The position numbers were made by a program, and so were the translations under genes. The notes below the pieces were generated by a model that saw nothing but the letters and a program-made list of their open reading frames with translations, ran no database searches and was not told where the DNA came from. Positions 26,465-43,168 of a DNA stretch of 43,168 nt are shown piece after piece. Origin of the DNA: a virus; the IMG/VR virus record IMGVR_UViG_3300001865_000266, positions 1 through 43,168 of that record; one strand, given 5' to 3'. Within the stretch, counting starts at the first letter, position 1; each line of letters opens with the position of its first letter.

Positions 26465-26690
26465 AAAAATAAAAGATTGTGGAGGTTGAAAGATTTACCA
26501 ATAAGATTAGGTAAACTCCACAATCCTGTAAAAATAAAGAGATTGAGGGAACATAAATCAGGTGGTTTTGGTGATTAAATGAAACAAAAAATGGTTTCCC
26601 TCAACTCTGAAATAAAAATTAAAGATGGTAGTTGGGGTTTTTTAAACCCCTACGAAATGAGTTCTGCATGAGGTAACTACCCTTTGAATG
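26465..26690 (-). terminator. Three tandem stem-loops each followed by a U-tract (terminators or small RNAs)
   Basis: Inverted repeats GATTGTGGAG/CTCCACAATC, GAGATTGAGGGAAC/GTTTCCCTCAACTC, GGTAGTT/AACTACC, each preceded on + by an A-rich tract. Confidence 0.6.
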
Positions 26691-27090
26691 AATCGTAACT
26701 AATCTTTTTATAACTGCTATAACTTGGGGGGCCATCTTTAACTAGACCACATTTGATACAAACTGTTTCGGCCCTTATTTCATCATAAATAAAATCTGTA
26801 CTTTCACAATCACTGCAACGATTAATATCATGATCAGTGGGAAGGGAAGCTGTTTCCGATATCACCCTTGAGAAAGACAGTGTTTCGGGGCTTCCCAATA
26901 AATAGAATCCACATCTACATGTTTTGAGGATTCTGCCTTTGAGAGTTAAAGCTTCATCACAGTAATAGCATTTACCCTCATTAATTGATTTAAGAAATTC
27001 AGTGTTCCAAAAATAATTAGGTTCAGGTTTCATAATCTTTTCAGAGTTATTGCTTTCTATATAATGCCTTACGCCATTAGAAACCATCAT
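26677..27090 (-). CDS. Double Zn-ribbon protein with TFB/TFIIB-type ribbon
   Basis: CSDCESTDFIYDEIRAETVCIKCGLV; also CYYC...CRCG. Confidence 0.75.
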   Translation of the reverse strand: MMVSNGVRHYIESNNSEKIMKPEPNYFWNTEFLKSINEGKCYYCDEALTLKGRILKTCRCGFYLLGSPETLSFSRVISETASLPTDHDINRCSDCESTDFIYDEIRAETVCIKCGLVKDGPPSYSSYKKISYDSFKG

Positions 27091-27464
27091 GTTGAATATC
27101 TCCTTAACCTCAAAGCTTTCAGTTGGTTTTCAACTAAAGTTTTTTCCTTGTCAAAATTTGGATTTCTATTTTTCCCAAGTCCAGTTCTCATTGAACCTAA
27201 TGCTAATTGATCGCTTCTTATAACTGTCCAGTTTCCATTATTATCATAATATTCCATGAATTGTGTACGTTGAATTTGTCTTTTCTTAAAATTATTCTGA
27301 TTATGCCTTCGGTCTTTATATTGTCTCCTACATTCATCTGAACAGTGAACTTGTCGATTATGTTTGACTAAAAAATATGAATCACAGTTTTTGCATTGTT
27401 TGATTACGCCTTCAATTTTTAAATTAAATAGCATACTGATAAGGATACCTTCATTATCTACCAA
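27087..27464 (-). CDS. Treble-clef-type Zn-finger protein
   Basis: KQCKNCDSYF...QVHCSDECRR. Confidence 0.65.
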   Translation of the reverse strand: MVDNEGILISMLFNLKIEGVIKQCKNCDSYFLVKHNRQVHCSDECRRQYKDRRHNQNNFKKRQIQRTQFMEYYDNNGNWTVIRSDQLALGSMRTGLGKNRNPNFDKEKTLVENQLKALRLRRYST

Positions 27465-27515
27465 AATAATGCCTCCAATTAAAATTAAAATAATTAAAAA
27501 ATTAAAAATATAAAA

Positions 27516-27974
27516 TTAGTTGAGTTGGTCTAATTCCTCTGAAACTATTTTGTAAATGATATGTCCTGATAAAAAATCAATGAAATAACCTAATGATTTC
27601 CTTTTTCCATTAATATAAATTCTAGAATGAAATTTTTTTGACTGGTTATGCCAATAAATTCCAACTGGCCAAAGTCCATGATTTTTTCTATGCTGATTAT
27701 TTTTTCGGTTAGTGACTATTTCCAGATTACATCTTCGATTATCAAGTGTGTCATGGTTTTTATGGTGGACTTGTAATCCTTTTGAAGGTTTTTTAATTAC
27801 TCTTGACATTAAAATAGTTCGTGTACGATTATTTTTTTGTATAGTTCGTTCTGCATAATAACTTGATGTATTTTTAAACCAATGTGCATGCCATTTGAAT
27901 TGATTCAAATATTCAAAATCTTCATCATCTACTAAAGCATATTGTTCTTGTGTCAATTTAATTTTTTTAACCAT
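27516..27974 (-). CDS. HNH homing endonuclease with AP2-like domain
   Basis: ALVDDEDFEYLNQFKW...VHHKNHDTLDNRRCNL...GIYWH...KRKSLGYF. Confidence 0.9.
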   Translation of the reverse strand: MVKKIKLTQEQYALVDDEDFEYLNQFKWHAHWFKNTSSYYAERTIQKNNRTRTILMSRVIKKPSKGLQVHHKNHDTLDNRRCNLEIVTNRKNNQHRKNHGLWPVGIYWHNQSKKFHSRIYINGKRKSLGYFIDFLSGHIIYKIVSEELDQLN

Positions 27975-28113
27975 ATTATCTCCTCAATAATAGGGTGCGA
28001 CCATTAGAACATTTAAATAGTTAAAATTTTACTTTAAAAATTTATTACAATCCATCAAAAAACCTCCTTGCAATAGCTAATACAGATTTAAAATGCAAAA
28101 ATAAGTTAAAAAT

Positions 28114-28341
28114 TTATCTAAGTCCTAAAATTCCATAAACAATAATCACTGTAATTATCCACGATATCGGGAATATGTGCCAATGTTTTATCAGTTCTCT
28201 TACTAAAACATCTGTTTTATAATTTAAAGTAAGATATGGTGTGATAATAGTCAAATATCTACTCCACAAAACTCCATTTTCTTCTTTGAAATATCTTAGA
28301 TTTGATGGACATATCCATACATTTTGTCTGTATTTACTCAA
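28114..28341 (-). CDS. Hypothetical membrane protein
   Basis: C-terminal hydrophobic helix; overlap-coupled. Confidence 0.5.
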   Translation of the reverse strand: MSKYRQNVWICPSNLRYFKEENGVLWSRYLTIITPYLTLNYKTDVLVRELIKHWHIFPISWIITVIIVYGILGLR

Positions 28342-28547
28342 TTTACTGGCTCCTTTTGAGTTTTAGATTTATCCATCCATTGGCATTTTCTTTCATGGCA
28401 TTTAATTAGTGGAAGTCCTGTGCTTAGCAATTCTATAACCATGTTTATTGTGTCTTTATTTCCTTGGAATGTGCATATTAAATGTGGTTGTTTGTGTAAT
28501 GTACCTGTAGCATTTGGATCTTCAAATTCTGCTCCAACTTCTGGCAT
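28338..28547 (-). CDS. Hypothetical protein
   Basis: Coupled ORF in early operon. Confidence 0.5.
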   Translation of the reverse strand: MPEVGAEFEDPNATGTLHKQPHLICTFQGNKDTINMVIELLSTGLPLIKCHERKCQWMDKSKTQKEPVN

Positions 28548-28548
28548 G

Positions 28549-29010
28549 TCATCTACCCCGTGTCATTTCCAAATATTTCCGTTGAGTTAAACTTTTATCT
28601 TTTCTGGTTTTAGGTTTTTGCTGATATTCCCTTTCAAATAATTTAGATGAACCATGAGAACTGATATCATACTTTGGAATTTGGAACCCAACTACTGGCA
28701 CCTCATGTCCACCCATCTGATAAGTTAAGCTCATGTTGTGTTTCAGTATGTCCATATTCACCTGCGACACATTATTTATAACAGGCATTATTTGATCCCA
28801 TACTTTCTGCCAAAGTTTATTTAATTTAATAGAAAGTTCTTCCGTTCTTCTGATCTGTTCCATTTCAATATCTGAAATTGTGTAACCCATCGAAGCCCAT
28901 GCACTTACACTAAAAACATAAGTTCCAAACTCAGTTGAAATCTTACCTTCCAACGCATATAAACCCTTTAAATCCTGTTCTATATGTTTATATTGGCACG
29001 TTTTAATCAC
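28549..29010 (-). CDS. Hypothetical protein
   Basis: GTG start after GGTGA SD; 153 aa. Confidence 0.6.
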   Translation of the reverse strand: MIKTCQYKHIEQDLKGLYALEGKISTEFGTYVFSVSAWASMGYTISDIEMEQIRRTEELSIKLNKLWQKVWDQIMPVINNVSQVNMDILKHNMSLTYQMGGHEVPVVGFQIPKYDISSHGSSKLFEREYQQKPKTRKDKSLTQRKYLEMTRGR

Positions 29011-29314
29011 CTTTTATTTTCATATATCCTATTAATTGGGGCTTTGGATCTGGAAATTCTGGTTTAATGTCTATTGTTGGTTTAAAATATTCACGGGCCT
29101 CTTCAATGTCTTCCATTGGATTTGCATTATTCCAACTAGTAGGCCCAGAACATGGTCCTATATGTGCAGTGGGTTGATTTAAGTTGTTAATATCAAATTC
29201 TAGTAATTGGTCATAAATTTCTTTTAATTCTGCTTCTTCATAACCAACATTGCCAAAAAATAATCTACCCATAGTCTCATTGGCGAACTCTTCAAATGAT
29301 TCTTTAACCTTCAT
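29003..29314 (-). CDS. Hypothetical protein
   Basis: GGTGA SD, TAAATG coupling. Confidence 0.65.
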   Translation of the reverse strand: MKVKESFEEFANETMGRLFFGNVGYEEAELKEIYDQLLEFDINNLNQPTAHIGPCSGPTSWNNANPMEDIEEAREYFKPTIDIKPEFPDPKPQLIGYMKIKGD

Positions 29315-29761
29315 TTAATCACCATTTATAACTTTAAGGGCTTCTCGATATTTATTAATCAGTCTATTCCTAGTTTTAGTGTCTAAATTTCTCATTCTTT
29401 TAGGTGATACGTTATGTCTTATATCCGCCTTCTTTACGACTTTGGCTATTGGATTCTGCTTTAAACGGTTCCAATATTCCAAATTTGTTTCATAAGGCCT
29501 ATGTGTCATTCCATCCACAGCCTCAACTATTTCAGTTGAAAACCCCCACTTAAATAAAAATTCTAAAGTTATATCTGAATCCTCTACAACATCATGTAAA
29601 ATTGCTACGGTTTTCTCTTCAATAGTTTCAACTAAATTCATAACAGCCAAAGGATGTAAAATATACGGCAATCCTGCTTTATCTTTTTGATTTGTATGTG
29701 CAATTATTGCAATTTCTAAAGCATTTTCTATTGGATTTATCATAACCTCTTGACATTTCAT
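29315..29761 (-). CDS. HD-domain hydrolase, Mesh1/SpoT-HD-like
   Basis: AHTNQKDKAGLPYILHP...AILHDVVED...VKKADIRHN. Confidence 0.85.
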   Translation of the reverse strand: MKCQEVMINPIENALEIAIIAHTNQKDKAGLPYILHPLAVMNLVETIEEKTVAILHDVVEDSDITLEFLFKWGFSTEIVEAVDGMTHRPYETNLEYWNRLKQNPIAKVVKKADIRHNVSPKRMRNLDTKTRNRLINKYREALKVINGD

Positions 29762-29919
29762 TCCAAAATCACCTTTCTATAAGTTTTTGCAGTATTATCG
29801 GTTGCATAATGTTCAGGATCCTCAAGACATCGGAACTGTTTTCTTTTCTTCGGCCCGAACTGTTTCATCCTACCTCCACATTGGGGACAGAATACGCCTT
29901 CAGATTCTAATTCAATCAT
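29758..29919 (-). CDS. 53-aa Zn-ribbon-like protein (not in track)
   Basis: GAGGAGG SD; CPQCGG...FRC...H; ATGA coupling. Confidence 0.6.
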   Translation of the reverse strand: MIELESEGVFCPQCGGRMKQFGPKKRKQFRCLEDPEHYATDNTAKTYRKVILE

Positions 29920-30154
29920 GATATCCTCCTCTTCTTTTATTACTCCATTGGATTATACCATAAGCACTAATTGCAAGGTATAAGAGAAATATAAAAGTTA
30001 CTGGGTAGTTTTGGGATAATAAACCATATAAAATAAAAAATATGTTACTTCCAATCCAGATATACAACCCTCGAATATTACACCTTGAATTGAGTACAGC
30101 CCCATAGATCCCTAATAAAGTGGCAGCACCATAAAAGATAATTGTTAAATCCAC
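29912..30154 (-). CDS. Three-helix membrane protein resembling half of a PnuC-type transporter
   Basis: LYIWIGSNIFFILYG...YLAISAYGIIQW pattern. Confidence 0.5.
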   Translation of the reverse strand: MDLTIIFYGAATLLGIYGAVLNSRCNIRGLYIWIGSNIFFILYGLLSQNYPVTFIFLLYLAISAYGIIQWSNKRRGGYHD

Positions 30155-30155
30155 T

Positions 30156-31508
30156 TTAATCCACTTCCTTTAATTTGATATGGATTTCATTAGTTGCAGG
30201 TTCTATTGTTATCTTCTCTGAATGTGGATATAATGTCGGTAAAAGTTCTTTGATACGATACTCTGGAGTTTTGATTGGATCATCTATTACTAAATATTTG
30301 ACTGGTTTTCTATTTTCTTCTGCTATTTCCCCTGCTAATTTGTCAACATCAACTTTAGATCTTGCAAGATCCCATGCCCTCCTCATTGCATCAACTGCAA
30401 GATCACCCGGTTTAACTTCATCTTCATTTTCAGGATCCAATATAACCTTTCCTTCCTGCATAGAATTAACAATTCCTTCATCCATTACTCTCTGTTTTAC
30501 TGCTAACTCTCTTTTATATGCTTCCTGTTTATTCTGTTCGTACTCTTCTGCTTCGTTTATCTTAAGTTTCGGTTTCACAACTTTTGAGTTGGGCAAGTCA
30601 GGTTTTACTTCTGGACTGTTTTTAGGGTTTGATTTAATCAATCCATTACCTTCTAATTTCTCAATAGCACTTTCGGACATTTTAATAGATTTGCATTCTT
30701 TTAATGGTAATGAATAATAATTAGTACGGCCCTTTTTATTGCAGTTTAATAGTCCTTCTTTTGTTAGAATATTGCTGTATGTACTTGTATTTGCAGTTGA
30801 TTTCTTCAAGAATTTTGCTAGACTTTTTGTTGACATCTTCTTATTTTTGGTAAGTACAGCTTCAATTTTAGGCCATAAATCCAACGCTCTTGTTTTATCC
30901 AGTTTATACTTTCTTTCAATAATGCAATTTTTACACATGTTGCCCTGATCTTTATAGAAATTCTTAGGATCTGATTCTCCACATTTACTGCAACATGTTT
31001 TATTTCCCTTTCGCTCATTTATTTTGGCTTCTCTATTCTTTTGAACCTCCACATCACAGGCCCTGCAAATATCTTTAAACCCTCCAGGTTTTCCTGCAAT
31101 TGGTACAAAACTCTTTAATGGTTTACGTTCTCCACAAATTACACATTCCTTAGTTTTAACCATATCGATATTAACCTCTGATTCTACCTTGCTTTTACTT
31201 TTAATAGTCTCATCCTCCTCTTCAAACTTTGAAAGTCCTTGAAGTAAACCAGGACTTTTACTTTTCCCGATAATTATTGCGGGTTGCTTTTGATTAACCT
31301 GTTTCATCTCACAGCTCGGACATATTGCCATAGGTCTTGCCGTAACTGGATCTAAACTAAACTCTTCAATAGGATAAATAACTCCACACTGGTTGCACAT
31401 CTTCTTTTGAATTATTTTTACCTCTTTCTCTTGAACCCTGTGAGGCCTATTATTAGTCCGTTCCTTATAACTCTCAAAAGATTCAAAACTGGGTAAATCT
31501 GAAGTCAA
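30156..31508 (-). CDS. Multi-Zn-finger plus winged-helix protein
   Basis: Three CxxC...CxxC fingers; STKSLAKFLKKSTANTSTYSNILTKEGLL...GRTNYYSL wHTH. Confidence 0.7.
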   Translation of the reverse strand: MTSDLPSFESFESYKERTNNRPHRVQEKEVKIIQKKMCNQCGVIYPIEEFSLDPVTARPMAICPSCEMKQVNQKQPAIIIGKSKSPGLLQGLSKFEEEDETIKSKSKVESEVNIDMVKTKECVICGERKPLKSFVPIAGKPGGFKDICRACDVEVQKNREAKINERKGNKTCCSKCGESDPKNFYKDQGNMCKNCIIERKYKLDKTRALDLWPKIEAVLTKNKKMSTKSLAKFLKKSTANTSTYSNILTKEGLLNCNKKGRTNYYSLPLKECKSIKMSESAIEKLEGNGLIKSNPKNSPEVKPDLPNSKVVKPKLKINEAEEYEQNKQEAYKRELAVKQRVMDEGIVNSMQEGKVILDPENEDEVKPGDLAVDAMRRAWDLARSKVDVDKLAGEIAEENRKPVKYLVIDDPIKTPEYRIKELLPTLYPHSEKITIEPATNEIHIKLKEVD

Positions 31509-31573
31509 AAAATCGCCTCCGATTAAATTAAAATAAGAATTACAAAATTAAGTTAAAAGTAAAAATAGAAATT

Positions 31574-31957
31574 TTAACTATTCCAAAAATCAACACCCCA
31601 ACTACAAGCAATGTGGGTCATCCAATAAATATCGCCACAATAATGATCGGCCCAATAATCAAGGTCTAAATCATAATCAAATATTGCCCATTCCATTTGC
31701 TCAGTTGAGATTAAACTATGTGTTTTTGCATATTCAACTCCATTTACAAATGCTAAATAATTTAGATGGTTTTCTCTGCATTCCTTTTTTAAATAAATTT
31801 TATCAAAGGTTACAACTTCCCACATACCTAACTCATATTTTATTATTGTGGGTTTATTGTGAAAATAGAGTTGAATATGAAAATCTCTTGTAGTATGTGT
31901 TGCAGGTTTATATTTATCATATAATGCATTGAAAAGATGTACTTCATGATTACTCAT
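31574..31957 (-). CDS. Hypothetical protein
   Basis: Start moved to ATG 31957 (GGAAGTGA SD). Confidence 0.55.
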   Translation of the reverse strand: MSNHEVHLFNALYDKYKPATHTTRDFHIQLYFHNKPTIIKYELGMWEVVTFDKIYLKKECRENHLNYLAFVNGVEYAKTHSLISTEQMEWAIFDYDLDLDYWADHYCGDIYWMTHIACSWGVDFWNS

Positions 31958-32035
31958 CAATATCACTTCCTTGATATGGTTCAGCTTCAAATGAATTCCA
32001 CTCAGGACCAAAACAGTTTACCCATGAACTCCACA

Positions 32036-32191
32036 TTATACCACAACCTCCACATGTTCCAATCCACAAAAATCACATCGTACCCATTCATGAATTTCAA
32101 GTGGTGGATCTTCACTTGGATTGAAAATCATTCCTTTACCAGTTCTTTCATTCCAGGGGAGCATGCAATATGGACAGGGTTGTTTTTTCAT
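32036..32191 (-). CDS. 51-aa Zn-finger protein (not in track)
   Basis: CPYC...CDFC. Confidence 0.55.
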   Translation of the reverse strand: MKKQPCPYCMLPWNERTGKGMIFNPSEDPPLEIHEWVRCDFCGLEHVEVVV

Positions 32192-32301
32192 TTTATCCCC
32201 TTGTTGAACGTTTTATAAAAACAGTACATAATCGATTTGTTAAGATGCTTTGGAGTCCAGTAGATATGTGTCAGTTTTTTAAAGTTGATGTGGGCTTTCA
32301 T

Positions 32302-32808
32302 TCAACCCAACTCCTGATGATCCATTTGAGTTTGTGTTAAGGATTCTTCTAAACTGGTTACTGGAAAAAACTGTAATTTATCATATTTAGTGTAAAAATA
32401 AAGAGTAGTGTTATGATTTTTCCCCATGATTAATTGAATAATTTCTGGACAATTTAATTCTCCACTAGCAAGTCTCATCATTTCATCGTCATCGATTATA
32501 CTTGGTTGAGGTGAATTGTTTGGGTGTGTATGGAATGCACCTACTACTCTCAATCCTAAGTCATGTTTTTCATCCCAAATTTGTTTATCCATCTTATCAA
32601 ATTCAAAATTAGTATAAGGTTTTTTATGTACATTAGGTAAAAATATAGCTTCTTCAATTATTGCTGTACTCATATCTGTGGAGTATGTTCCAAAAAGCCA
32701 ACCTCCTACTTCAATTAAATTTTTATCATATTTTTCTTGAATTTTATTTAAAATAGATTGATCAATTTCAACATACGTTTTTTGATTTTCTAATTTGAAT
32801 TTCATCAT
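32302..32808 (-). CDS. JAB/MPN+ (JAMM) metalloprotease
   Basis: EVGGWLFG and HTHPNNSPQPSIID (HxHx7SxxD); start ATG 32808. Confidence 0.85.
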   Translation of the reverse strand: MMKFKLENQKTYVEIDQSILNKIQEKYDKNLIEVGGWLFGTYSTDMSTAIIEEAIFLPNVHKKPYTNFEFDKMDKQIWDEKHDLGLRVVGAFHTHPNNSPQPSIIDDDEMMRLASGELNCPEIIQLIMGKNHNTTLYFYTKYDKLQFFPVTSLEESLTQTQMDHQELG

Positions 32809-32948
32809 CCCAACTCCTTCCCATCTAATATCCAATCTAAAACAGCTATCTGTCCTTTAAGTATTCTTAATTGTGTCCAATCCGATTCCTTGGGAACTTG
32901 TTTTCTGAGTTCTGTTCTCATCCGTTTGATTGTACGGATTTGTTTCAT
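32805..32948 (-). CDS. 47-aa hypothetical protein (not in track)
   Basis: GGAGG SD, overlap-coupled on both sides. Confidence 0.55.
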   Translation of the reverse strand: MKQIRTIKRMRTELRKQVPKESDWTQLRILKGQIAVLDWILDGKELG

Positions 32949-33709
32949 TTAGAAACCTCCATAAAACTATCCAATGTAACAACCTTCTCAACAGCCTTTT
33001 CAGTTGGTGGAACTGTTATTGGAACTTTATAAGTGTATAATTCTGATATCTGAGCTTTCCGAACGTGTGGTAATGGAATACCTTGATTTAAATATTCATT
33101 AACCTTCCAAGCTCCATAGATCTCTAATGATAAACTGTTCATCCAAATAACTTCACCAACAACACCATGCAAAATAAAATTAGCAATAGTCATTTTAACA
33201 CAGGTTTCATCTAAATCCATGGCTACATGATAGTTACCTGGGGCTTCAACATGTAAGGCTAATAAACATCTTCCAGATCCACAGGTAGGATCATTGAAAT
33301 GTTCTCCAGTGGGTCTTTTATCGGTTGGAAACTGTACCTTAGCCATGAAATCACAGATGTGCTTTGGAGTGAAAAACTGGCCTTGATACTTCCTACTCAT
33401 TTTAGACACGATAACGGCCTCGTAGTAAACACCAAACATATCGTACCAATCATTATCATTAACCAGTTGTTTATCCATTATTCGTATCCATTCTTGGTAT
33501 AACTCCCAGAACAGCTTAATCTCATCCTTTGAATACTTTTTAGACCATTTTAAACTATCATCTAAATTGTGGTACAATAAAATATACTCAAGAAAATCAT
33601 CAAAAATAACAGACCAATCATAAGAATAAGCTAATTTAGAAAAAATAGAATGAAAACCCTTCAATTCAGAAGGTACATTAACCTCCAAAATATCATGCCT
33701 CCTATTCAC
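32945..33709 (-). CDS. N6-DNA methylase-like protein lacking the NPPY/F catalytic motif
   Basis: GQFFTPKHI, DPTCGSGRCLL (motif I), DLDETCVKM...N; no NPP(Y/F). Confidence 0.75.
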   Translation of the reverse strand: MNRRHDILEVNVPSELKGFHSIFSKLAYSYDWSVIFDDFLEYILLYHNLDDSLKWSKKYSKDEIKLFWELYQEWIRIMDKQLVNDNDWYDMFGVYYEAVIVSKMSRKYQGQFFTPKHICDFMAKVQFPTDKRPTGEHFNDPTCGSGRCLLALHVEAPGNYHVAMDLDETCVKMTIANFILHGVVGEVIWMNSLSLEIYGAWKVNEYLNQGIPLPHVRKAQISELYTYKVPITVPPTEKAVEKVVTLDSFMEVSK

Positions 33710-34115
33710 AGCAAGGTTTAATAAACGTGTCTAAAGATGTCTGAGCTAAAAGTAAATCATTAATTTTTGTGGATTGTTTGGAGTTATAATAAATATCTTC
33801 AAGTAATCTAACACCATAGCTACTTTTACCATGTTCATCAGGGCCACATACTGGACATATCCAACCTTTATTTGAACCTAATACTCCAATATGTACAATG
33901 TCTTGTGTTTTACAATTATCACATTCCACTTTCTGATGTTGTGGAATTATATGATGTTCTATTTCTGTTATCATGATATTTCCATCACAAATCAGACAGG
34001 CCAGGTTAGTGTCTCCTAATTTGTATTGATTAAAATCGCTGAGAGTTTCTTGAGTATTCTCACAATCCTCACAAACTAAAGTAATTTCATCGTATTTATG
34101 AGAATAGTTAGGCAT
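33702..34115 (-). CDS. Multi-CxxC Zn-binding protein
   Basis: CEDC, CLIC, CDNC, CPVC. Confidence 0.65.
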   Translation of the reverse strand: MPNYSHKYDEITLVCEDCENTQETLSDFNQYKLGDTNLACLICDGNIMITEIEHHIIPQHQKVECDNCKTQDIVHIGVLGSNKGWICPVCGPDEHGKSSYGVRLLEDIYYNSKQSTKINDLLLAQTSLDTFIKPCCE

Positions 34116-34241
34116 TTAATCAGCTCGTTTATCATCAACACTTTCATGAACAAATCGATCATCCTGGCACTGTAAACACGGCCCTTTAAAACGATTCCTC
34201 CACTGGCAATAAGGTTGATCACAGGCTGAGTTTGTAGTCAT
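34116..34241 (-). CDS. 41-aa Cys-containing peptide (not in track)
   Basis: GGTGA SD; CDQPYC...CLQC; fills the gap between coupled genes. Confidence 0.5.
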   Translation of the reverse strand: MTTNSACDQPYCQWRNRFKGPCLQCQDDRFVHESVDDKRAD

Positions 34242-34538
34242 TTAATCACCTATAATTTTTTGACGATTGGTGATATGTCTCCATAATCCCCCAATTTTAT
34301 TGATACGTGTAACTTTTACCGTGTCCTGTTCTGTAATTTGTATTTCCTTGATTTTACGTACCTGTACCAACTTATAATAATAATCAAACCACAAATGAAC
34401 CATTAAATAAATTCTTTCTTCATTTTCAGACTTGTTGATATAATATTCTTTTCCATTATGACTTCCATGGCCGCGTCCATCTGGTGATGTATATCGTTGC
34501 CATCCTGGAACTGATAAAATCCAACTAAAACCTTTCAT
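34242..34538 (-). CDS. Hypothetical protein
   Basis: GGTGA SD, coupled ORF. Confidence 0.6.
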   Translation of the reverse strand: MKGFSWILSVPGWQRYTSPDGRGHGSHNGKEYYINKSENEERIYLMVHLWFDYYYKLVQVRKIKEIQITEQDTVKVTRINKIGGLWRHITNRQKIIGD

Positions 34539-34897
34539 CTAATCACCTTCAAAGTAGTGATTCCATCCATGTTTAAATCAAGATTTAAGAGGTCATTAAG
34601 ACGTTTTAGAATATAAAAAGAATGGTTAAATGTTTGTTGTGGAGTATCGTCACTAGTATGGTTTAAAACATGTAAATCATTATCAAGTCTTTTAACCTGC
34701 ATTCCACGTAAACTAAAAACCTTCCTAATCACATCTTCAATTTCCCTTCTAGAATTATCCTTAACATTATCAAATACATTCAAAATTTTACATTCATAAA
34801 ACACCATATCCCTAAAATCACTCTCAAAAGAACCTAGATATTCAATTAACAATAGATCCCCTCCAAAAAAAGAAAAATTAATCTGGCACATAACCAT
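34535..34897 (-). CDS. Hypothetical protein
   Basis: Coupled ORF; exact start uncertain. Confidence 0.5.
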   Translation of the reverse strand: MVMCQINFSFFGGDLLLIEYLGSFESDFRDMVFYECKILNVFDNVKDNSRREIEDVIRKVFSLRGMQVKRLDNDLHVLNHTSDDTPQQTFNHSFYILKRLNDLLNLDLNMDGITTLKVIR

Positions 34898-35255
34898 GCT
34901 TAGTTAAAACCAGATACTCATCGAACTTTTCAAGCTGTTTAACCGTTTTAACAAGTTTATAATTCTTGTAATACTTTGTAGTCAAGAAATAGTTATGCCT
35001 CAAAGTTAAATGCTTACCCCTGATAGATTTAACATAACCCTTATCATGCACACTGAAAATATACCCTTTCCCATTCTTTACTTCTGTTAAAACAGATGTC
35101 GATTCAAATGCTAACTTGTTTATATACAGATTTTTGTAGTGTGTCTCCTTCGAGTAGGTGTAACTATCACCATTTTTCACAGCACTTCCACTGCCCACAA
35201 CAGACAATGCAAAAACAAATACTAACAATACTGCAACTACACTTTTAACTCTCAT
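34878..35255 (-). CDS. Secreted/surface basic protein
   Basis: Signal peptide MRVKSVVAVLLVFVFALSVVGSGSA; K/Y-rich. Confidence 0.7.
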   Translation of the reverse strand: MRVKSVVAVLLVFVFALSVVGSGSAVKNGDSYTYSKETHYKNLYINKLAFESTSVLTEVKNGKGYIFSVHDKGYVKSIRGKHLTLRHNYFLTTKYYKNYKLVKTVKQLEKFDEYLVLTKHGYVPD

Positions 35256-35287
35256 ATAACCAACTCCTTTCTTGTATACTCAACGCT

Positions 35288-35455
35288 CTAAAATCCTATT
35301 GCTAAAGTTTCCATTGATTCCTGACAATTTCTACAGATATGTTTGGTATCTATTTGTTCACTTTCAGGGGTCTCTTGTTCGTAAATTGGAACTTCATAAA
35401 CTTCATCAGTATCATTAAAAGGTTTTAGACAAAGATCACACTGTTCTGGTTTCAA
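35288..35455 (-). CDS. 55-aa Zn-finger protein (not in track)
   Basis: TTG after GAGGGGG; CDLC...CRNC. Confidence 0.55.
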   Translation of the reverse strand: MKPEQCDLCLKPFNDTDEVYEVPIYEQETPESEQIDTKHICRNCQESMETLAIGF

Positions 35456-35456
35456 A

Positions 35457-35618
35457 TCAATTCCCCCTCAACTCTTCCATTTCACTTATCTGATCCTCAA
35501 GTATCTTCTTTTCCTGTCTCAATTTCGCATCATTAGGATACAACTTAAGACGTGTATTAACGTTTTTAAGTCTTTGACTCGCATCGATCCAAGTTGTGGT
35601 TGCTTCTAATTTGTTCAT
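35457..35618 (-). CDS. 53-aa coiled-coil peptide (not in track)
   Basis: ATGA coupling; MNKLEATTTWIDASQRL...EELRGN. Confidence 0.5.
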   Translation of the reverse strand: MNKLEATTTWIDASQRLKNVNTRLKLYPNDAKLRQEKKILEDQISEMEELRGN

Positions 35619-35932
35619 TTGCTCACCATGGCCTGTTTAGTATCTACTTTAAAGGTGGCTTGTGGACCTTTAACGTTCCTTAATTTTGCAATATAAAATA
35701 AAGCTGCATAACAATGTTTACAAAGAAAACTGCCATTTTTACTGTTTCCTTCACGTTGAAATCTGAATTCATAATCCTCACAAGTATTGCACCTGGCCAC
35801 CCCATCAACTATAGAAACAAGATAATCTGTAGGGCCACTTGTGACCTGGACCTGGATCTCTTCATCATCCTCAAAAATTAACGAACACTTACCTTGATGA
35901 TACAACCTATAACCTGCATCTAAACGCTTCAT
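35615..35932 (-). CDS. SWIM Zn-finger protein
   Basis: YLVSI...ARCNTCEDYEFR...LCKHCYAAL. Confidence 0.8.
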   Translation of the reverse strand: MKRLDAGYRLYHQGKCSLIFEDDEEIQVQVTSGPTDYLVSIVDGVARCNTCEDYEFRFQREGNSKNGSFLCKHCYAALFYIAKLRNVKGPQATFKVDTKQAMVSK

Positions 35933-36264
35933 GATTTGTTCTCCATGTCCACATGGATGTGGCTTTGTTTAACTAAAGATTCTTGATGTTTAATCTCCAA
36001 TACATTGATTAATCGACGTATCTCATCAGGACTCATTGCAGTATTTATAATTCGTTCAATTTGTTGTTCTAAATTTTCAAGTGCCTTTGTATATCCATAT
36101 ATCCCAATATCACACTCTTCATAAAGCTCATCAATCCAATGTGCTGCCTTATCATAATCTCCATTTCGATTAAAATTTTTCTCCCAAATATGTCTAAGAA
36201 CTGATTTAATTTGACCAAATTCTTCTTGATTTAAATCATTTATTCTGATAACTAAACATCTCAA
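35929..36264 (-). CDS. Hypothetical protein
   Basis: TTG 36264 after GGAGG SD. Confidence 0.55.
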   Translation of the reverse strand: MRCLVIRINDLNQEEFGQIKSVLRHIWEKNFNRNGDYDKAAHWIDELYEECDIGIYGYTKALENLEQQIERIINTAMSPDEIRRLINVLEIKHQESLVKQSHIHVDMENKS

Positions 36265-36295
36265 AACAAAACCTCCTAATTTAGACAATAAAAAA

Positions 36296-36387
36296 TGGAC
36301 GACCCTGGAATCGAACCAGGAATTAAATTTACGATTGAATAATTGTCGTTGTGTCTTTTGAGTTTACAAGATAACCCTGTGCCGTCC
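36296..36387 (-). ncRNA. tRNA-mimic RNA 1 (acceptor stem plus T-arm, non-tRNA interior)
   Basis: GGACGGC/GTCGTCC-A acceptor; CCTGG TTCGATT CCAGG T-arm. Confidence 0.65.
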
Positions 36388-36438
36388 TAAAAAAATAGTT
36401 GGGGGGTAGGGGACAGTTTGTGTCAGTCCCTGTGACGA

Positions 36439-36514
36439 AGGCCGTGGTCGGATTTGAACCGGCGATCTGCTGCTCACAAGGCAGCCGCATTAAACCAGAC
36501 TATGCTACACGACC
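36439..36514 (-). tRNA. tRNA-Thr(UGU), atypical (G37, C50:A64), no encoded CCA
   Basis: Cloverleaf GGTCGTG/CACGGCC, D GCAT/ATGC, anticodon arm GCTGC-CTTGTGA-GCAGC, T-loop TTCAAAT. Confidence 0.8.
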
Positions 36515-36594
36515 ACAAATGGATCCGAGGGATCCACCTGCTAACAAAATTTATACAGATTTTCCTGTACGAAGATAACTGCCGTTACAGGTTT

Positions 36595-36707
36595 GAGGGG
36601 ATTGTAGGAGAAAAGATATTTTTGGTAGACATCACCAAATCAAAAAGTTCCCTTATATTCATATAAAATTGGAGGTATTACATGCAAAACCTACAAATCC
36701 TTTCCTC
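36595..36707 (-). ncRNA. Stem-loop RNA with anti-Shine-Dalgarno loop
   Basis: GAGGGGATTGTAGG/CCTACAAATCCTTTCCTC inverted repeat; minus-strand loop contains AATACCTCCAATTTT. Confidence 0.5.
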
Positions 36708-36722
36708 AAAAAAAGTAAAATA

Positions 36723-37292
36723 TTAACCTCTACGATTTAGTTCTTTCTCAATCCTTGGCAGTATCTCAGCGGGTAAAGTTTCCTTATCATCTATATGATA
36801 CTTTTTAGCACGTTCTAAGATTGATTTTACAGTTGGATCTATATGTTCATCCATCAGATCATCAACAATCTGATCAATAAGTCCAGCTGCTTCAACGTCT
36901 GCCAGTGGAGTTGCAGGTTTACTTTCGGCCTTTAACTCTGCATACAGAGGATCATCTTTTGATAATAAAACATGTATTTTGAATTTTTTGAAAGGTTTTT
37001 TCCGAGTGTCTGCCATTTCCTTTACACCTGTGAAAATAATTTGTAAAGGTTTATTCAGCAATCTATCAGTTAACCGGCTGTTTAATCCTGTTGTACCATA
37101 GAATTGAATTTTTCCATTAACAGCTTCAGGATGTTCAGTTTCAAAACAATACTTCCAATTTGGCCTTCCTTTAAATGGTGCTTCCTCTTTTTTAAGATAT
37201 ACTCCTACTAACTCATCACCAATTGTTTCCGGCTCCCATAACCCTGATTTATCAGGAATTGGAACCCATTCTTTATCTTTTGTGTCTATCAT
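36723..37292 (-). CDS. Putative OB-fold ssDNA-binding protein
   Basis: WEPETIGDELVGVY...FYGTTGLNSRL...LQIIFTG pattern; start ATG 37292 after GGAGG. Confidence 0.55.
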   Translation of the reverse strand: MIDTKDKEWVPIPDKSGLWEPETIGDELVGVYLKKEEAPFKGRPNWKYCFETEHPEAVNGKIQFYGTTGLNSRLTDRLLNKPLQIIFTGVKEMADTRKKPFKKFKIHVLLSKDDPLYAELKAESKPATPLADVEAAGLIDQIVDDLMDEHIDPTVKSILERAKKYHIDDKETLPAEILPRIEKELNRRG

Positions 37293-37400
37293 TCCAAATA
37301 CCTCCAATTTTTAATCTTTTAATTTACAACTATTCACAAACCATAAAACAAGTAAAAAAGCAACGGCCCATAAAACAAGACCTAAAAATAATGACATATT

Positions 37401-37646
37401 CTACACCTGTACGGTGGCCATTACAGCCAAATATCCAATCCAAACCATAAATCCACCAATAACAATAGATATGGCCATGATGGCTAGTATGGCCTCTTTT
37501 TGCTGTTTAGAAAATTTAGATTGTTTATTTGGATACAAAGAATTATTCTTAGGTGCAATCTGACACTTACGATAGACAATACCACAAACACATTTAAAAT
37601 AAGTGTCAGTTTCCCTCATGGCCTTGTCACAACCTGGACAGTTCAT
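37401..37646 (-). CDS. Zn-ribbon protein with C-terminal TM helix
   Basis: CPGC...CVCG; hydrophobic tail. Confidence 0.6.
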   Translation of the reverse strand: MNCPGCDKAMRETDTYFKCVCGIVYRKCQIAPKNNSLYPNKQSKFSKQQKEAILAIMAISIVIGGFMVWIGYLAVMATVQV

Positions 37647-38026
37647 TTTGCATCACCTTCTAACTCTTCAACGATAGGGATCAGCTTTTCAGGAATTGGA
37701 ACATTTGGTTGTTGATACACCAACCTATGCCGAGTCATTATAAAGGATAAACCTCCAATAGGTCTTTCTAGTTTATCTGCTATTTCTTTCTTAGAGGAAC
37801 CCTTCTGTCTTAAAATCCATATATTCCAAAGATCTTCATCTGAATAAGGTTTAAAATCTTTCCGTAAATCCTGATTATAACCAAGTTCCCCTTTCTTTTT
37901 ACTAATAGTTGTATAATGTTTCTTAATTTTTCCTGACTCATAAATTTCCTTTAAAGTCATGCCTTTTTCAGCCATTTTAATCAAAGCATTTTCCTCATCT
38001 TCTGTCCAACTTGATAGTCTGCCCAT
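37643..38026 (-). CDS. Tandem HTH (Myb/GcrA-like) DNA-binding protein
   Basis: WTEDEENALIKMAEKGMTLKEI and YSDEDLWNIWILRQKGSSKKEIADKL repeats. Confidence 0.7.
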   Translation of the reverse strand: MGRLSSWTEDEENALIKMAEKGMTLKEIYESGKIKKHYTTISKKKGELGYNQDLRKDFKPYSDEDLWNIWILRQKGSSKKEIADKLERPIGGLSFIMTRHRLVYQQPNVPIPEKLIPIVEELEGDAK

Positions 38027-38030
38027 TACA

Positions 38031-38270
38031 TCACCTTCTTAAAACTTTAATTTGATAATAGCCGTCCTGATTTGCAATATAAACAGTTGTAGGATTGCTT
38101 AAGGATTTACATTCAAAAGTAGGATATGAAACTATGTCTGTTGGTACATCTTTCAAGTCAAGTTTAGTTAAAATTAAACATTGATTTTTATCCAGACAAG
38201 ATGCAACCATATTAATTGAATCCCCAACATAATGATTAGATGGTAATTGTCCTACCCATTTCTCTGTCAT
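38031..38270 (-). CDS. Hypothetical protein
   Basis: GGAGG SD; coupled. Confidence 0.55.
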   Translation of the reverse strand: MTEKWVGQLPSNHYVGDSINMVASCLDKNQCLILTKLDLKDVPTDIVSYPTFECKSLSNPTTVYIANQDGYYQIKVLRR

Positions 38271-38434
38271 TATATTGCCTCCTTTTGATAATTTGAATTA
38301 GCTTCGGCATTTAGATCCTCACAGTCGCCACAACCATCACAAATTGTGCAAGTTCCATAAGCTTTATAATCTGAACATTCAGCTTTACCCATGCATTCAT
38401 CACAAAATTGGTGTTTCAATTTATCACAAACCAT
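38270..38434 (-). CDS. 54-aa protein with 8 Cys (not in track)
   Basis: MVCDKLKHQFCDECMGKAECSDYKAYGTCTICDGCGDCEDL... Confidence 0.6.
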   Translation of the reverse strand: MVCDKLKHQFCDECMGKAECSDYKAYGTCTICDGCGDCEDLNAEANSNYQKEAI

Positions 38435-38568
38435 TCAAGCACCCCCTAACGTAGCCGTTAAATGACTTAACAACCCATAATTAACCCAGTAATCCTCATC
38501 TTCATAATCACTCATAGAATTTATTTGTTTAACAAAAACTTCCAAAATAAAACCCCCTAAAAAAGAAT

Positions 38569-39027
38569 TTAAAAAGGATACATCTCAATAATCTTATAAT
38601 GATTGGTGAGTTTATCCTGAACACTGACCGGTCCATTCCACTTACCATCAAGAGTATGAGGTAATCGAGACCATGGAACAATTCTGTCCACATGCAACTG
38701 ATAAGGATTATTTTTCCAATATGGTTTATAATCAATCACAGCATTGTAACGTTTACCATTCCGTTTCGATTCAACACGTAACAGAAAAACAGTATTCTCT
38801 TCAATAAAATGTTCAGAATCAAGATTCCTCTTGATGAATCGTTTTAATGCAATTCCGATTTTGGATCTGTTTCGGAATAATTGTTGAGTCTTTGGTAGAA
38901 TATTATTGATTCTTGCTTGGTTTTCAATTTCACGTTCAGCTTTTAACTGGGCCTGTTCCTCTTCATATTGTTTTTTCAATTTCAATTCCTCTTCCTTACT
39001 AATACGAATCTGTTCAACTCCAATCAA
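38569..39027 (-). CDS. Hypothetical protein
   Basis: TTG start overlapping upstream stop; 152 aa. Confidence 0.6.
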   Translation of the reverse strand: MIGVEQIRISKEEELKLKKQYEEEQAQLKAEREIENQARINNILPKTQQLFRNRSKIGIALKRFIKRNLDSEHFIEENTVFLLRVESKRNGKRYNAVIDYKPYWKNNPYQLHVDRIVPWSRLPHTLDGKWNGPVSVQDKLTNHYKIIEMYPF

Positions 39028-39155
39028 CCTAAAACCCCCTCACGCATTAATCTAGCAATCCTCATCTGTTTCTCAAGCTCTGCCTCCAACTGCTCATCAA
39101 CCCTCGCAGCCTTAGGCGTTTCCTTATACCTTCTAATAACTACATTTCCCTCCAT
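39024..39155 (-). CDS. 43-aa first gene of early transcript (not in track)
   Basis: GGTGA SD; MEGNVVIRRYKETPKAARVDEQLEAELEKQMRIARLMREGVLG. Confidence 0.55.
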   Translation of the reverse strand: MEGNVVIRRYKETPKAARVDEQLEAELEKQMRIARLMREGVLG

Positions 39156-39221
39156 CTAATCACCAACTATGTTTTTTTAAACTAAACAAAACTCAGAACA
39201 CGCGTCTGAGAAATAAAGAAT

Positions 39222-39357
39222 TGGACAGTCTGGGATTCGAACCCAGGTAACAATTTGGCGTAGGATAGGTTAGGATTAAATTACGGCTATTAATTTAATC
39301 CATGGTGTAAAAGATCAAAAAACAAGAAATAATTTAAGTTACCCACCAAGGACCGTC
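39222..39357 (-). ncRNA. tRNA-mimic RNA 2 (acceptor stem plus T-arm around a structured insert of about 100 nt)
   Basis: GGACGGT/ACTGTCC-A acceptor; CTGGG TTCGAAT CCCAG T-arm; GTAAC/GTTAC helix; GGATTAAATTA/TAATTTAATCC hairpin. Confidence 0.65.
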
Positions 39358-39567
39358 CAAAAGAAATAAAAATATAAATTTTGTGTTCACTATTTCACTC
39401 ATCGCCGGAAGCCTTTTTTTATGTGTAATTCCCGTGTCCATCACCTGTGGTTCATTTTGGATATTAGGTTTTCGCTTCAAACACACATCCTTAAGACACT
39501 TACAAATTCCGTCCAGGTCTATCCTGAACCCAAGTGCCTATGACTTTTAACTCTCTATATTATAGTT

Positions 39568-39613
39568 GTAACTCCGAGTATATAAATGTAACTCTTTTAC
39601 TCTTTAGAGTTAC
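39568..39613 (-). promoter_or_regulatory. Leftward promoter with GTAACTC operator half-sites
   Basis: TTTATATA box (39579..39586) flanked by GTAACTC copies and GTAACTC-N12-GAGTTAC palindrome. Confidence 0.7.
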
Positions 39614-39775
39614 TATATAATAATTAAAAATAATATAATAATAAAAATAAAATAAATAATAAATAAATAATAAAAAGACTAAATTAGAAAACATACGTGT
39701 AGTATACCCGTGTGTATACGTATGCTCACCCGTATGTTTTGAAAAGAAAAAATCACACGTACACCATACACGGTG
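39614..39775. repeat. AT-rich tract plus short CATACG/ACACG/CCCGT repeats (candidate origin)
   Basis: Almost pure A/T tract at 39614..39690 followed by direct and inverted short repeats. Confidence 0.35.
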
Positions 39776-40257: not shown

Positions 40258-40995
40258 TCACCTGAAATCTAAAAGATCTTTTTGATTAGGATCTATCGAA
40301 ACTAAATAGACCTGTCTATCGTCTCGATTAAAATGATCATACGCAAATTTGTAAACGGTTTCACAGATTTGAGGGTTTTGTTTTAGGTAATCTCGTCTAG
40401 ATAAATTTTGCATACCTGCTAAAGCCTGAATATCTATTCCTGTTTCGCATGTGAAAATATAAAAAAGTTCTTTGTAAAGATCCTTCATAGCTCCAAGGCC
40501 ATGTCTAGAACAATCCACCATAAGATTGGATAATTTTTTATTAGGTGTTTCGGCCTGTAAGATAGCAAGTTCCTCTCTACGAATACCTAATAACTGTTCT
40601 GTAATTGTTGTTAAATTCTCAATTAATCTATTCTGCTTATTCTCAACATACATCCCCGTTTTCCTGATCGATGGCAGTACATCATTCGTGATCCATTTAC
40701 GGAATTCTTTGGCTTCAGGTTTTCTTGAATTAAAAATTAGTTCATATACTCCGGATTCTTTAAGCCAGTATCTTTGAGAATTCTCAATAAATTTTAAATT
40801 TATTGAATCATTTCCAAGAATGGATTTTAAATCCGTGCGTTCTAACCCGTCCATTCTACTTATATATTGCGTAACACTTGATTCTTTTAAATCAAGACAT
40901 TTTCCTACATCATAAGGGTTGAATAAAACTTCATCATTTAAAGTAATAGTTTCAACACTTTGATGTCCAAACTCAAAAATTTTAAGTTCATTCAA
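40258..40995 (-). CDS. Bro-N domain antirepressor-like protein
   Basis: FNPYDVGKCL...ESGVYELIFNSRKPEAKEFRKWITNDVLPSIRKTG; TTG 40995 after GGAGG. Confidence 0.9.
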   Translation of the reverse strand: MNELKIFEFGHQSVETITLNDEVLFNPYDVGKCLDLKESSVTQYISRMDGLERTDLKSILGNDSINLKFIENSQRYWLKESGVYELIFNSRKPEAKEFRKWITNDVLPSIRKTGMYVENKQNRLIENLTTITEQLLGIRREELAILQAETPNKKLSNLMVDCSRHGLGAMKDLYKELFYIFTCETGIDIQALAGMQNLSRRDYLKQNPQICETVYKFAYDHFNRDDRQVYLVSIDPNQKDLLDFR

Positions 40996-41042
40996 ACATA
41001 TCCCTCCATTTTGAATTCTCAAAAATTTTCTGTAAGAATACT

Positions 41043-41195: not shown

Positions 41196-41426
41196 ATGGT
41201 TAAAGAAGGAAGTAAAAAGGTTACAATAGATGTGCCTATAGAAAAATATGAACTCCTGGAAGAAATTAAAAATGCAGGAGGAATCAACTCCATAAGGGCC
41301 GGTGTATCAGAAGGGGTAGATTTGGTTATATTAAACCATATAGAATTGTTAGAAGAGAATATAGTAACTAGGGTAGATAATTTAAGAGATAGTTTATCTA
41401 AGATTAAAAAAGAACACTCAGAGTAA
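41196..41426 (+). CDS. RHH-like repressor candidate
   Basis: KKVTIDVPIEKYELLEEIK...SIRAGVSEGV; GAGGA SD; divergent from Bro-N gene. Confidence 0.65.
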   Translation: MVKEGSKKVTIDVPIEKYELLEEIKNAGGINSIRAGVSEGVDLVILNHIELLEENIVTRVDNLRDSLSKIKKEHSE

Positions 41427-42007: not shown

Positions 42008-43168
42008 TTATTCTTTTGGAGGTAATTTTAATAATAATTCTAAATTACCTGTTTTAATTGCTTCTAACATTACTTCCATCTCAGAACGAAGCTTTTTATT
42101 ATCATTTTCAACATCAATTAAACGCTGTTTATCTTCAGTTGTTACATGATGTACTTGAGTATCTCGAAGACTTAACTCAGCAATGCATAGGGTGTACTGT
42201 TCTTTTAGGAAGTTGTCATCCTGTTTGATGTAAGCTTCTTGTATTTCATCAATTGTATGGCCTAAAAGTCGAGATATTGTTATTTGTTGTAAACCTTGAT
42301 TCATTAGTGTGGTTGCAAATATTTTCCGGAAACTATGACTATGTAGTTTGATATGGGATCCTACCATTCCAAAATCACATTTATTATTTAAGAATACAAA
42401 ATAGTTGAAAAATGCTCTTTTGCTGATTGGTTTGGTTTTAAACCGTCCACTTGGGAATAGTGGTGTTTCTAATGTTTTTGGAGGTTGGGTTTTTAAATAT
42501 TTTAGTATAGCATCTACACATTCAGGGGTACTAAATGTAGTAACTGGCGTGTCATTTTTTATTGTTGTTATTTTCCAAGTTGGGATTATTTCTTCATTAG
42601 TTTTAGACAGTATTTGGATAAGTTCATCTACACTAATCATAGTGTTATCTGTTACTTTGATGTATTGGTGTAAGGATTTAATAAAGTCGTGATAGGATAA
42701 TGCTCTTATATCACTACTTCTTAATCCTGTGGATAGGGCGGTTTTAATTATTGCTTCATATTTGACATTTGCAAAGGTTAAAGCTTCCCGAATTTCATCT
42801 TTAGTAGGTAAATCTGTTAAACTCTCCTTTTTAATATTTTTTTTACTATAATTAATTCTTGGAACCACTACATCAAACTGTTTATAAAATGATTTAATGG
42901 AACTTAATCTTACAATAATGGTTCGTGGACTGTAATTATTTTCTACAAGATAATCTTTATAATCCAACAAGTAATCATTAATGGTTCTTTGTGATAATCG
43001 TAATCCTTGGTCTTCTTCGTTTTCGGCTTCTGTTATAAATTCATCAGGTGTTTTGTTTAGAAATTCACTGTATTGTGTTATTTCTATTCTGTACCGTTCT
43101 AATGTTCCACTTCGAATTGTTCGGTTTTTTATGAACCTTTTAAAACGTCGATCCCCTGTAATGTCCAT
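42008..43168 (-). CDS. int: Tyrosine integrase
   Basis: STGLRSSDI (R), HSHSFRK (HxxR), LLGH, EAY catalytic residues. Confidence 0.95.
   Translation of the reverse strand: MDITGDRRFKRFIKNRTIRSGTLERYRIEITQYSEFLNKTPDEFITEAENEEDQGLRLSQRTINDYLLDYKDYLVENNYSPRTIIVRLSSIKSFYKQFDVVVPRINYSKKNIKKESLTDLPTKDEIREALTFANVKYEAIIKTALSTGLRSSDIRALSYHDFIKSLHQYIKVTDNTMISVDELIQILSKTNEEIIPTWKITTIKNDTPVTTFSTPECVDAILKYLKTQPPKTLETPLFPSGRFKTKPISKRAFFNYFVFLNNKCDFGMVGSHIKLHSHSFRKIFATTLMNQGLQQITISRLLGHTIDEIQEAYIKQDDNFLKEQYTLCIAELSLRDTQVHHVTTEDKQRLIDVENDNKKLRSEMEVMLEAIKTGNLELLLKLPPKE

Follow-up and report, generated by a model that had tools for sequence, protein, structure and literature searches.

Two transfer RNA (tRNA)-like elements, E1 and E2, were found in the early operon of the IMG/VR provirus record IMGVR_UViG_3300001865_000266, and we judge the chances to be about even that they are tRNA-derived processing signals similar to t-elements. 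The window analyzed in this study was the whole record (43,168 nt). It represents a temperate tailed virus whose host is a methanogen of the Methanobacteriaceae, and nearly all of its genes are on the minus strand (read leftward). E1 (36387..36296, minus strand) is 91 nt long, or 92 nt with the A discriminator, and is composed of an acceptor stem, a T-arm, and a non-tRNA interior. E2 (39358..39222, minus strand) is 136 nt long, or 137 nt with the A discriminator, and is located between a non-coding leader RNA and the next gene.

The acceptor stems of both elements are 7 bp long and G+C-rich, start with GGACGG, and close directly on the T-stem. Each T-arm has a 5-bp stem and a TTCGAWT loop, and the discriminator is A. 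In E2, the acceptor stem is followed by a small D-like hairpin containing GG, an insert of ~100 nt that replaces the anticodon arm, the T-arm, and the A discriminator. Two sites in the window matched a strict acceptor/T-arm signature, whereas 200 dinucleotide shuffles yielded none. Furthermore, the acceptor stem closed the molecule in the folds of E1 and E2 (z about -3.2 for both). Both elements have an acceptor-type stem on a T-arm without anticodon function, by which t-elements are recognized. The initial annotation of this DNA had described two tRNA-like RNAs with acceptor stem and T-arm only, together with one real tRNA. The signature scan, the folds, and the tRNA tests described below confirmed the former, and the latter was identified by ARAGORN and Rfam as tRNA-Thr(TGT) (36439-36514, minus strand), the single tRNA found in the window.

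Relatives of the virus were found in Methanobacteriaceae genomes, and a genus-level DNA search gave a mosaic relative, a provirus in the genome G076. When a 450-aa protein was used as the query for relatives, none was found. In G076, homologues of E1 and E2 were both present at matching positions, that of E2 right after the conserved leader and that of E1 after the tRNA trailer. The flanks were ~74-77% identical between the two viruses; the interiors of E1 and E2 could not be aligned, and the helices persisted. When the 24 acceptor and T-stem pairs of the window were compared with those of G076, we observed seven changed on both sides, two by wobble, and two broken, and RNAalifold of the E1 region was consistent with these counts. 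These compensatory changes in a related provirus indicate that the stems of E1 and E2 are under selection. E2 also keeps the GG-containing D-like hairpin beside the T-loop in both viruses.

The position of E2 was also compared in two other proviruses. The more distant provirus of G072 carries a genuine tRNA-Tyr(GTA) (L192 (G072:C1), minus strand, ~7479-7623) in the slot that follows the same leader; its first pair is the archaeal C1-G72, and its 73-nt intron occupies the canonical position. This tRNA was missed by both default ARAGORN and Rfam. In G085, the slot after the same leader was empty. Since a tRNA, a mimic, or nothing occupies the same slots, tRNAs and mimics are interchangeable at these positions. 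A t-element-like function is suggested because of this interchangeability and because the mimics keep just the helices that are read by RNase P, tRNase Z, and the CCA-adding enzyme. The family of the 189-aa protein encoded near E1 was found in ~17 proviruses, and an E1-like element was located nearby only in G076.

Subsequently, E1 and E2 were examined as possible tRNAs. Neither matched the Rfam tRNA model (RF00005) even at E<=10, and ARAGORN with intron search at default thresholds gave no tRNA for either. At the 80% threshold, ARAGORN called E2 a tRNA-Trp, but the 69-nt intron in this call was misplaced and the anticodon stem was poor. Every single-insert deletion was then generated by brute force, a test that covers single inserts per element; no tRNA was obtained from E1, E2, or either G076 copy, and the intron-containing tRNA-Tyr of G072, used as the positive control, was recovered 92 times. 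Since Rfam misses this intron-containing control, the Rfam negative alone could not exclude an intron in E1 or E2. The G076 copies themselves were not called tRNAs by ARAGORN or Rfam either. No transfer-messenger RNA (tmRNA) was detected in the tmRNA mode of ARAGORN even at a relaxed threshold, and the Rfam match was limited to 11 nt of the T-loop. Searches with exact and degenerate T-arm/acceptor words gave no exact match in IMG/VR and no match in 301 Methanobacteriaceae genomes, and a looser pattern of these parts returned ordinary tRNAs and attachment-site (att) fragments only. A host tRNA origin was also considered and rejected: the host tRNA-Ile has the generic T-arm of E2, but not its acceptor stem.

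E1 and E2 keep the parts of a tRNA that processing enzymes read, namely the acceptor stem, the T-arm, the discriminator, and, in E2, the D-like hairpin. When the operon is transcribed, host RNase P would cut the 5' ends of E1 and E2 as at a real tRNA, and tRNase Z would cut after the discriminator. These cuts would break up the long early RNA and define the termini of the RNAs next to E1 and E2, namely a leader of ~190 nt and messages starting just downstream of E1 and E2. Cleavage, the pattern of transcription, and a regulatory effect are predicted here from sequence and its comparison. After E1 there is a U6 run and then the Shine-Dalgarno (SD) sequence of the next gene (start 36264), the end of E1 lying 20 nt before that SD sequence. 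On the 3' side of E2, a short hairpin followed by a U-run (39192..39210, minus strand) was observed, which was not conserved in G076. A separate feature, hairpin 1, would pair in cis with an SD-bearing site of its own message, and translation would then be dampened or the message protected. The initial annotation had proposed that such RNAs are substrates of host tRNA enzymes and silence viral genes. The former part is credible in view of the tRNA slots, the co-directional operon, and the selected stems, whereas the case for antisense silencing is weak, as described later.

Several observations weigh against this processing-signal reading. In the G076 copies, the T-loops are imperfect (8-nt loop; G at position 58) and one pair of each copy is mismatched, and these less canonical copies could leave room for partial decay. 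The covariation of E1 and E2 is based on two sequences each, since only one close relative carries both. Moreover, U-runs are located directly before E1 and before hairpin 1. U-runs are archaeal transcription termination signals, and those before E1 and hairpin 1 could prevent co-transcription. Gene order and strand fit a co-directional transcript around E1 and E2, and the U-runs before E1 may terminate it.

The imperfect copies are also what would be expected if E1 and E2 were decaying viral tRNA genes (pseudo-tRNAs) without present function and the hairpins were ordinary terminator or intergenic structures. The presence of the elements in two viruses only and the state of the E2 slot, which is occupied by a true tRNA in G072 and empty in G085, agree with such decay. 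However, neutral decay at ~25% flank divergence should break ~10 of the 24 pairs, whereas two were broken and seven were compensated on both sides. Both elements also lack D and anticodon arms, yet the same two helices have been kept in both lineages. We therefore consider pseudo-tRNAs unlikely.

The D-like hairpin with GG beside the T-loop of E2 in both viruses would also suit a role of the tRNA elbow or the 3' end. E1 and E2 might act as decoys or sponges for the CCA enzyme, modification enzymes, or a tRNA-targeting defence, or as a tmRNA-like domain together with a viral protein. However, they have no anticodon loop for anticodon nucleases, and ARAGORN and Rfam gave no tmRNA features. The neighboring 189-aa protein had no convincing fold match, SmpB appearing only as a weak Foldseek row. 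An elbow or 3'-end function is thus very improbable, and we return to E1 and E2 as processing signals when they are compared with known systems.

Hairpin 1 (36592..36710, minus strand) lies behind the 189-aa gene (36723..37292, minus strand) and is formed by a 17-bp interrupted stem enclosing a multi-hairpin loop. Its antisense 15-mer (36679..36665) is the exact complement of the SD region of the 189-aa gene (37297..37311, minus strand; ATG at 37292), and its anti-SD core is displayed by an apical loop of 11 nt (36677..36667) that caps a 7-bp inner stem. In G076, the hairpin 1 stem persisted, although both sides had changed in 7 of its 13 pairs. The loop of the G076 hairpin has a different 14-nt perfect complement, to an SD-like site and ATG inside the same upstream gene. 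In the 189-aa gene of the window, an in-frame internal SD-like site with ATG is located at 37029..37014, and it is conserved in G076. When the loops were shuffled and compared with the adjacent gene, none of 2000 reached the observed complement length in either virus. There is moderate evidence, then, that the hairpin 1 region may pair in cis with the SD-bearing site of the 189-aa message. A small plus-strand open reading frame (ORF; 14 aa near 36684) was considered as the cause of the SD-like words and rejected, since it was not conserved in G076.

The second antisense segment is in hairpin A (26538..26608, minus strand), which has a 13-bp stem and is located at the end of the early module. 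Its target (29310..29324, minus strand) contains an SD sequence and a stop/start overlap, with the ATG at 29314 of the gene 29003..29314. Both 15-nt matches (36665-36679 with 37297-37311 and 26569-26583 with 29310-29324) are exact, same-strand reverse complements, and both targets cover the SD sequences of real gene starts, exactly as the initial annotation had stated. Its description of the antisense copies as loops held for the core of hairpin 1, which is in the apical loop, and not for the 15-mer of hairpin A (26583..26569), which is partly buried in an inner stem.

The strength of these matches was evaluated with shuffled sequences. The number of non-palindromic 15-nt inverted pairs was 6 in the window, compared with 3.6 +/- 2.2 in shuffles; therefore, the pair count by itself is not unusual. 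Within 3 kb, 3 such pairs were found against 0.38 expected, and 3 of 60 shuffles reached 3. In the genome-wide test, the observed length was reached by 31 of 3000 shuffled loops for hairpin 1 and by 9 of 3000 for hairpin A. The long matches are only modestly unusual genome-wide (per-loop p about 0.003 to 0.04, uncorrected for multiple testing), a result that also counts against a pairing role. The initial annotation had itself named antisense matches no better than shuffled controls as speaking against its proposal, and the RNAduplex energies of the loops with all predicted start regions were indeed no better than those of shuffled loops. Overall, the antisense matches are suggestive for hairpin 1 and weak for hairpin A.

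In G076, the analogue of hairpin A has an unrelated stem sequence and a loop containing CCUCC, and no complement of 12 nt or more was found for it. MAFFT failed to align the stems of hairpin A in register, and the conservation of hairpin A is based on separate folds. Next to it, hairpin B (26473..26527, minus strand), which has a nested inner hairpin and is followed by a U-run, was conserved in G076 with covariation. Covariation in homologues, which had been proposed as a check, was accordingly found for the stems of E1 and E2, hairpin 1, and hairpin B, and the long match of hairpin A was absent from the homologue. U-runs follow hairpins A and B, which lie at the close of the early module and resemble operon-end structures; the long anti-SD match of hairpin A is probably incidental. 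A 32-codon ORF with a canonical SD sequence (window 26481-26581, plus strand) has its start at 26579, within hairpin A, where its sequence is that of the antisense 15-mer read from the opposite strand. As a cause of the SD-like words, this 32-aa ORF was rejected, as it was not conserved in G076.

The location of hairpins A and B at the border of the early and late modules, where pac or cos sites are common, raises the question of whether the hairpins and inverted repeats act as DNA (an origin, packaging sites, or protein-binding sites) or whether template-switch mutation between inverted sequences close to each other produced the matches. The complementarity is perfect and ends abruptly, with neither G:U pairs nor mismatches, and hairpin A of G076 has a U-run on one side and an A-run on the other and would form on both strands. 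However, the covariation includes G:U pairs, and such pairs are strand-specific; the short plus-strand ORFs that might account for the SD-like words were not conserved in G076. We regard an action at the DNA level, or an origin by template switching, as very unlikely.

The exact complements raise the further possibility that host tRNA enzymes excise small antisense RNAs that repress viral starts, as an archaeal analogue of the P1 C4 and P4 CI immunity RNAs. The complements to SD regions are perfect and on the same strand, the conserved hairpin with the anti-SD core in its apical loop immediately precedes an RNase P site (the 5' end of the tRNA), the loops of both viruses share a recurrent CCUCC-type motif, and the hairpin A segment also complements two further starts over 13 nt. 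However, the best matches of the E1 and E2 interiors to viral transcripts were 11 nt, the same as for shuffles. The antisense segments are thus not in the mimics, and the claim that mimics and antisense RNAs form one layer did not hold. The duplex energies given above, the lack of conservation of the hairpin A match, and the hairpin 1 target of G076, which is an internal site and not the main SD sequence, also speak against such repression. Rfam gave no family of this type, P1 C4 included, above threshold in any part of the window or at E<=10 within 36000-39700, and nothing linked the hairpins or mimics to immunity. Excised antisense RNAs are therefore distinctly unlikely, and we assign the same low likelihood to an archaeal P1 C4 or P4 CI counterpart in which RNase P and tRNase Z cuts would release the leader and an anti-SD hairpin RNA that masks viral ribosome-binding sites, whether in cis or in trans. 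Support for an integrated, immunity-like RNA layer is weak.

The leader that precedes E2 (39359..39545, minus strand; ~190 nt) was 75-79% identical to that of G076 and better conserved than the neighboring genes, and it had no ORF in common with G076. Its 5' domain forms two nested helices with covarying pairs, which were also found in the proviruses of G072 and G085. Copies were located in three other Methanobacteriaceae proviruses (L194 9734-9921, L192 7739-7789, and L193 7672-7723, all on the minus strand), and in all four proviruses a TATA box precedes the leader. The leader had no Rfam match, and when its covariance model, R1, was searched against 37 genomes from two genera, these were the only ones with a match. 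A pairing of a word in the E2 insert with the leader was rejected, since it was not conserved in G076.

Upstream of the leader, a putative promoter region (39579..39613, minus strand) contains an 8-bp inverted repeat (39613..39606 / 39595..39588) and then a TTTATATA box (39586..39579). The box is expected to be a TATA box and the repeat is a possible operator, and both were almost invariant in G076. The same motif, that is, half of the inverted repeat, TTTATATA, and a shared downstream word, was repeated at ~40990-41030 (minus strand) before the Bro-N gene, so that two copies flank Bro-N. G076 has no Bro-N gene; the duplicated motif and this absence suggest that a moron may have been inserted via promoter duplication.

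The tRNA-Thr is preceded directly by a conserved leader hairpin (36541..36515, minus strand) and is followed immediately by a trailer hairpin (36410-36430, minus strand), after which there are a C-rich word and U7 (U7-U8). In G076, tRNA-Trp(CCA) is present at the same position in place of tRNA-Thr. Both flanking hairpins were kept there by compensatory changes though the tRNA differs. Other relatives carry a tRNA-Ser or tRNA-Thr within the same early operon. When the conserved trailer word was compared with metagenomes, 10 matches were found, all of them unrelated chance matches.

The 189-aa protein has a predicted beta-rich N-domain and helical C-domain. It had no Pfam family and no clear fold match (model pLDDT 69), and the best rows for the N-domain in the structure search had Z values of 5-6. 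Its N-terminal ~107 residues had homologues of ~110 aa in ~80 of 314 Methanobacteriaceae genomes, and their source is apparently a host gene.

The early genes also include those of a methylase, a JAB protease, and an HNH endonuclease, and the last gene of the early block encodes a protein with a TFIIB-type zinc ribbon (26677-27090). The sole opposite-strand gene of the early region (41196-41426, plus strand) encodes 76 aa without a Pfam match, and this region was 83% identical to G076. The gene faces the early promoters and is a candidate lysogeny regulator.

Several metagenome contigs carry the same virus and are identical across the regions of interest. One of them, as seen when L002 3880-4130 was compared with L003 3880-4130, has an excised (attP) junction in which the late/lysis genes are joined to the integrase gene (42008-43168); a pseudomurein endoisopeptidase-type domain was found among its late genes. 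In two other contigs, the integrase gene adjoins a truncated gene of a transporter of the major facilitator superfamily (MFS). The contig sequences part ways ~75 nt upstream of the integrase start. The attP contig and the MFS-junction contigs together indicate that the virus excises and that its integration site is the MFS gene and not a tRNA. E1 and E2 were accordingly rejected as att scars, the junction being upstream of the integrase, in the 3' end of the MFS transporter gene.

Almost nothing is known about post-transcriptional control in methanogen viruses. Cleavage of E1 and E2 by RNase P and tRNase Z, if it occurs, would mean that operons of archaeal viruses are subject to tRNA punctuation, a mechanism known from organelles and from one haloarchaeal rRNA case. 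The slot that holds a tRNA, a mimic, or nothing across relatives would be a natural series for the change from a tRNA gene to a processing signal. The leader RNA and the hairpin that complements the ribosome-binding region of its own gene are concrete, cheap targets for tests of archaeal RNA regulation.

Our literature searches found nothing of the kind of E1 and E2 for archaeal viruses. The statement in the initial annotation that no archaeal equivalent has been described was nevertheless too strong, as archaeal t-elements are described in Haloferax. Among known viral RNAs, the P1 C4 and P4 CI RNAs are similar in that same-strand RNA loops complement ribosome-binding regions of the same transcription unit and that an RNase P site is near. 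The RNAs in the window differ from them in having no sequence or structure match in Rfam, no immunity link, and a complementarity that is conserved only in part. The stable RNAs C and D of phage T4 are structured, non-decoding RNAs beside viral tRNA genes; they mature through the tRNA-processing machinery, and neither is known to have a function. E1 and E2 are like them in being non-decoding and beside a viral tRNA gene, whereas T4 is a bacterial phage and there is no homology.

In Haloferax volcanii, a t-element precedes the 5S rRNA, and such elements are processed by archaeal RNase P and tRNase Z (PMC4326828); t-elements also occur in plant mitochondrial transcripts (PMC1920247). E1 and E2 differ from these in belonging to an archaeal virus and in their much greater length (91 and 136 nt). 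In addition, a large variable insert takes the place of their anticodon arm, and they come with a real tRNA and a conserved leader. Furthermore, t-elements are read by RNase P and tRNase Z, whereas for E1 and E2 we infer the cleavage. Like t-elements, which are embedded in longer transcripts beside the ends of other RNAs, E1 and E2 combine an acceptor-like stem with a T-arm and do not decode.

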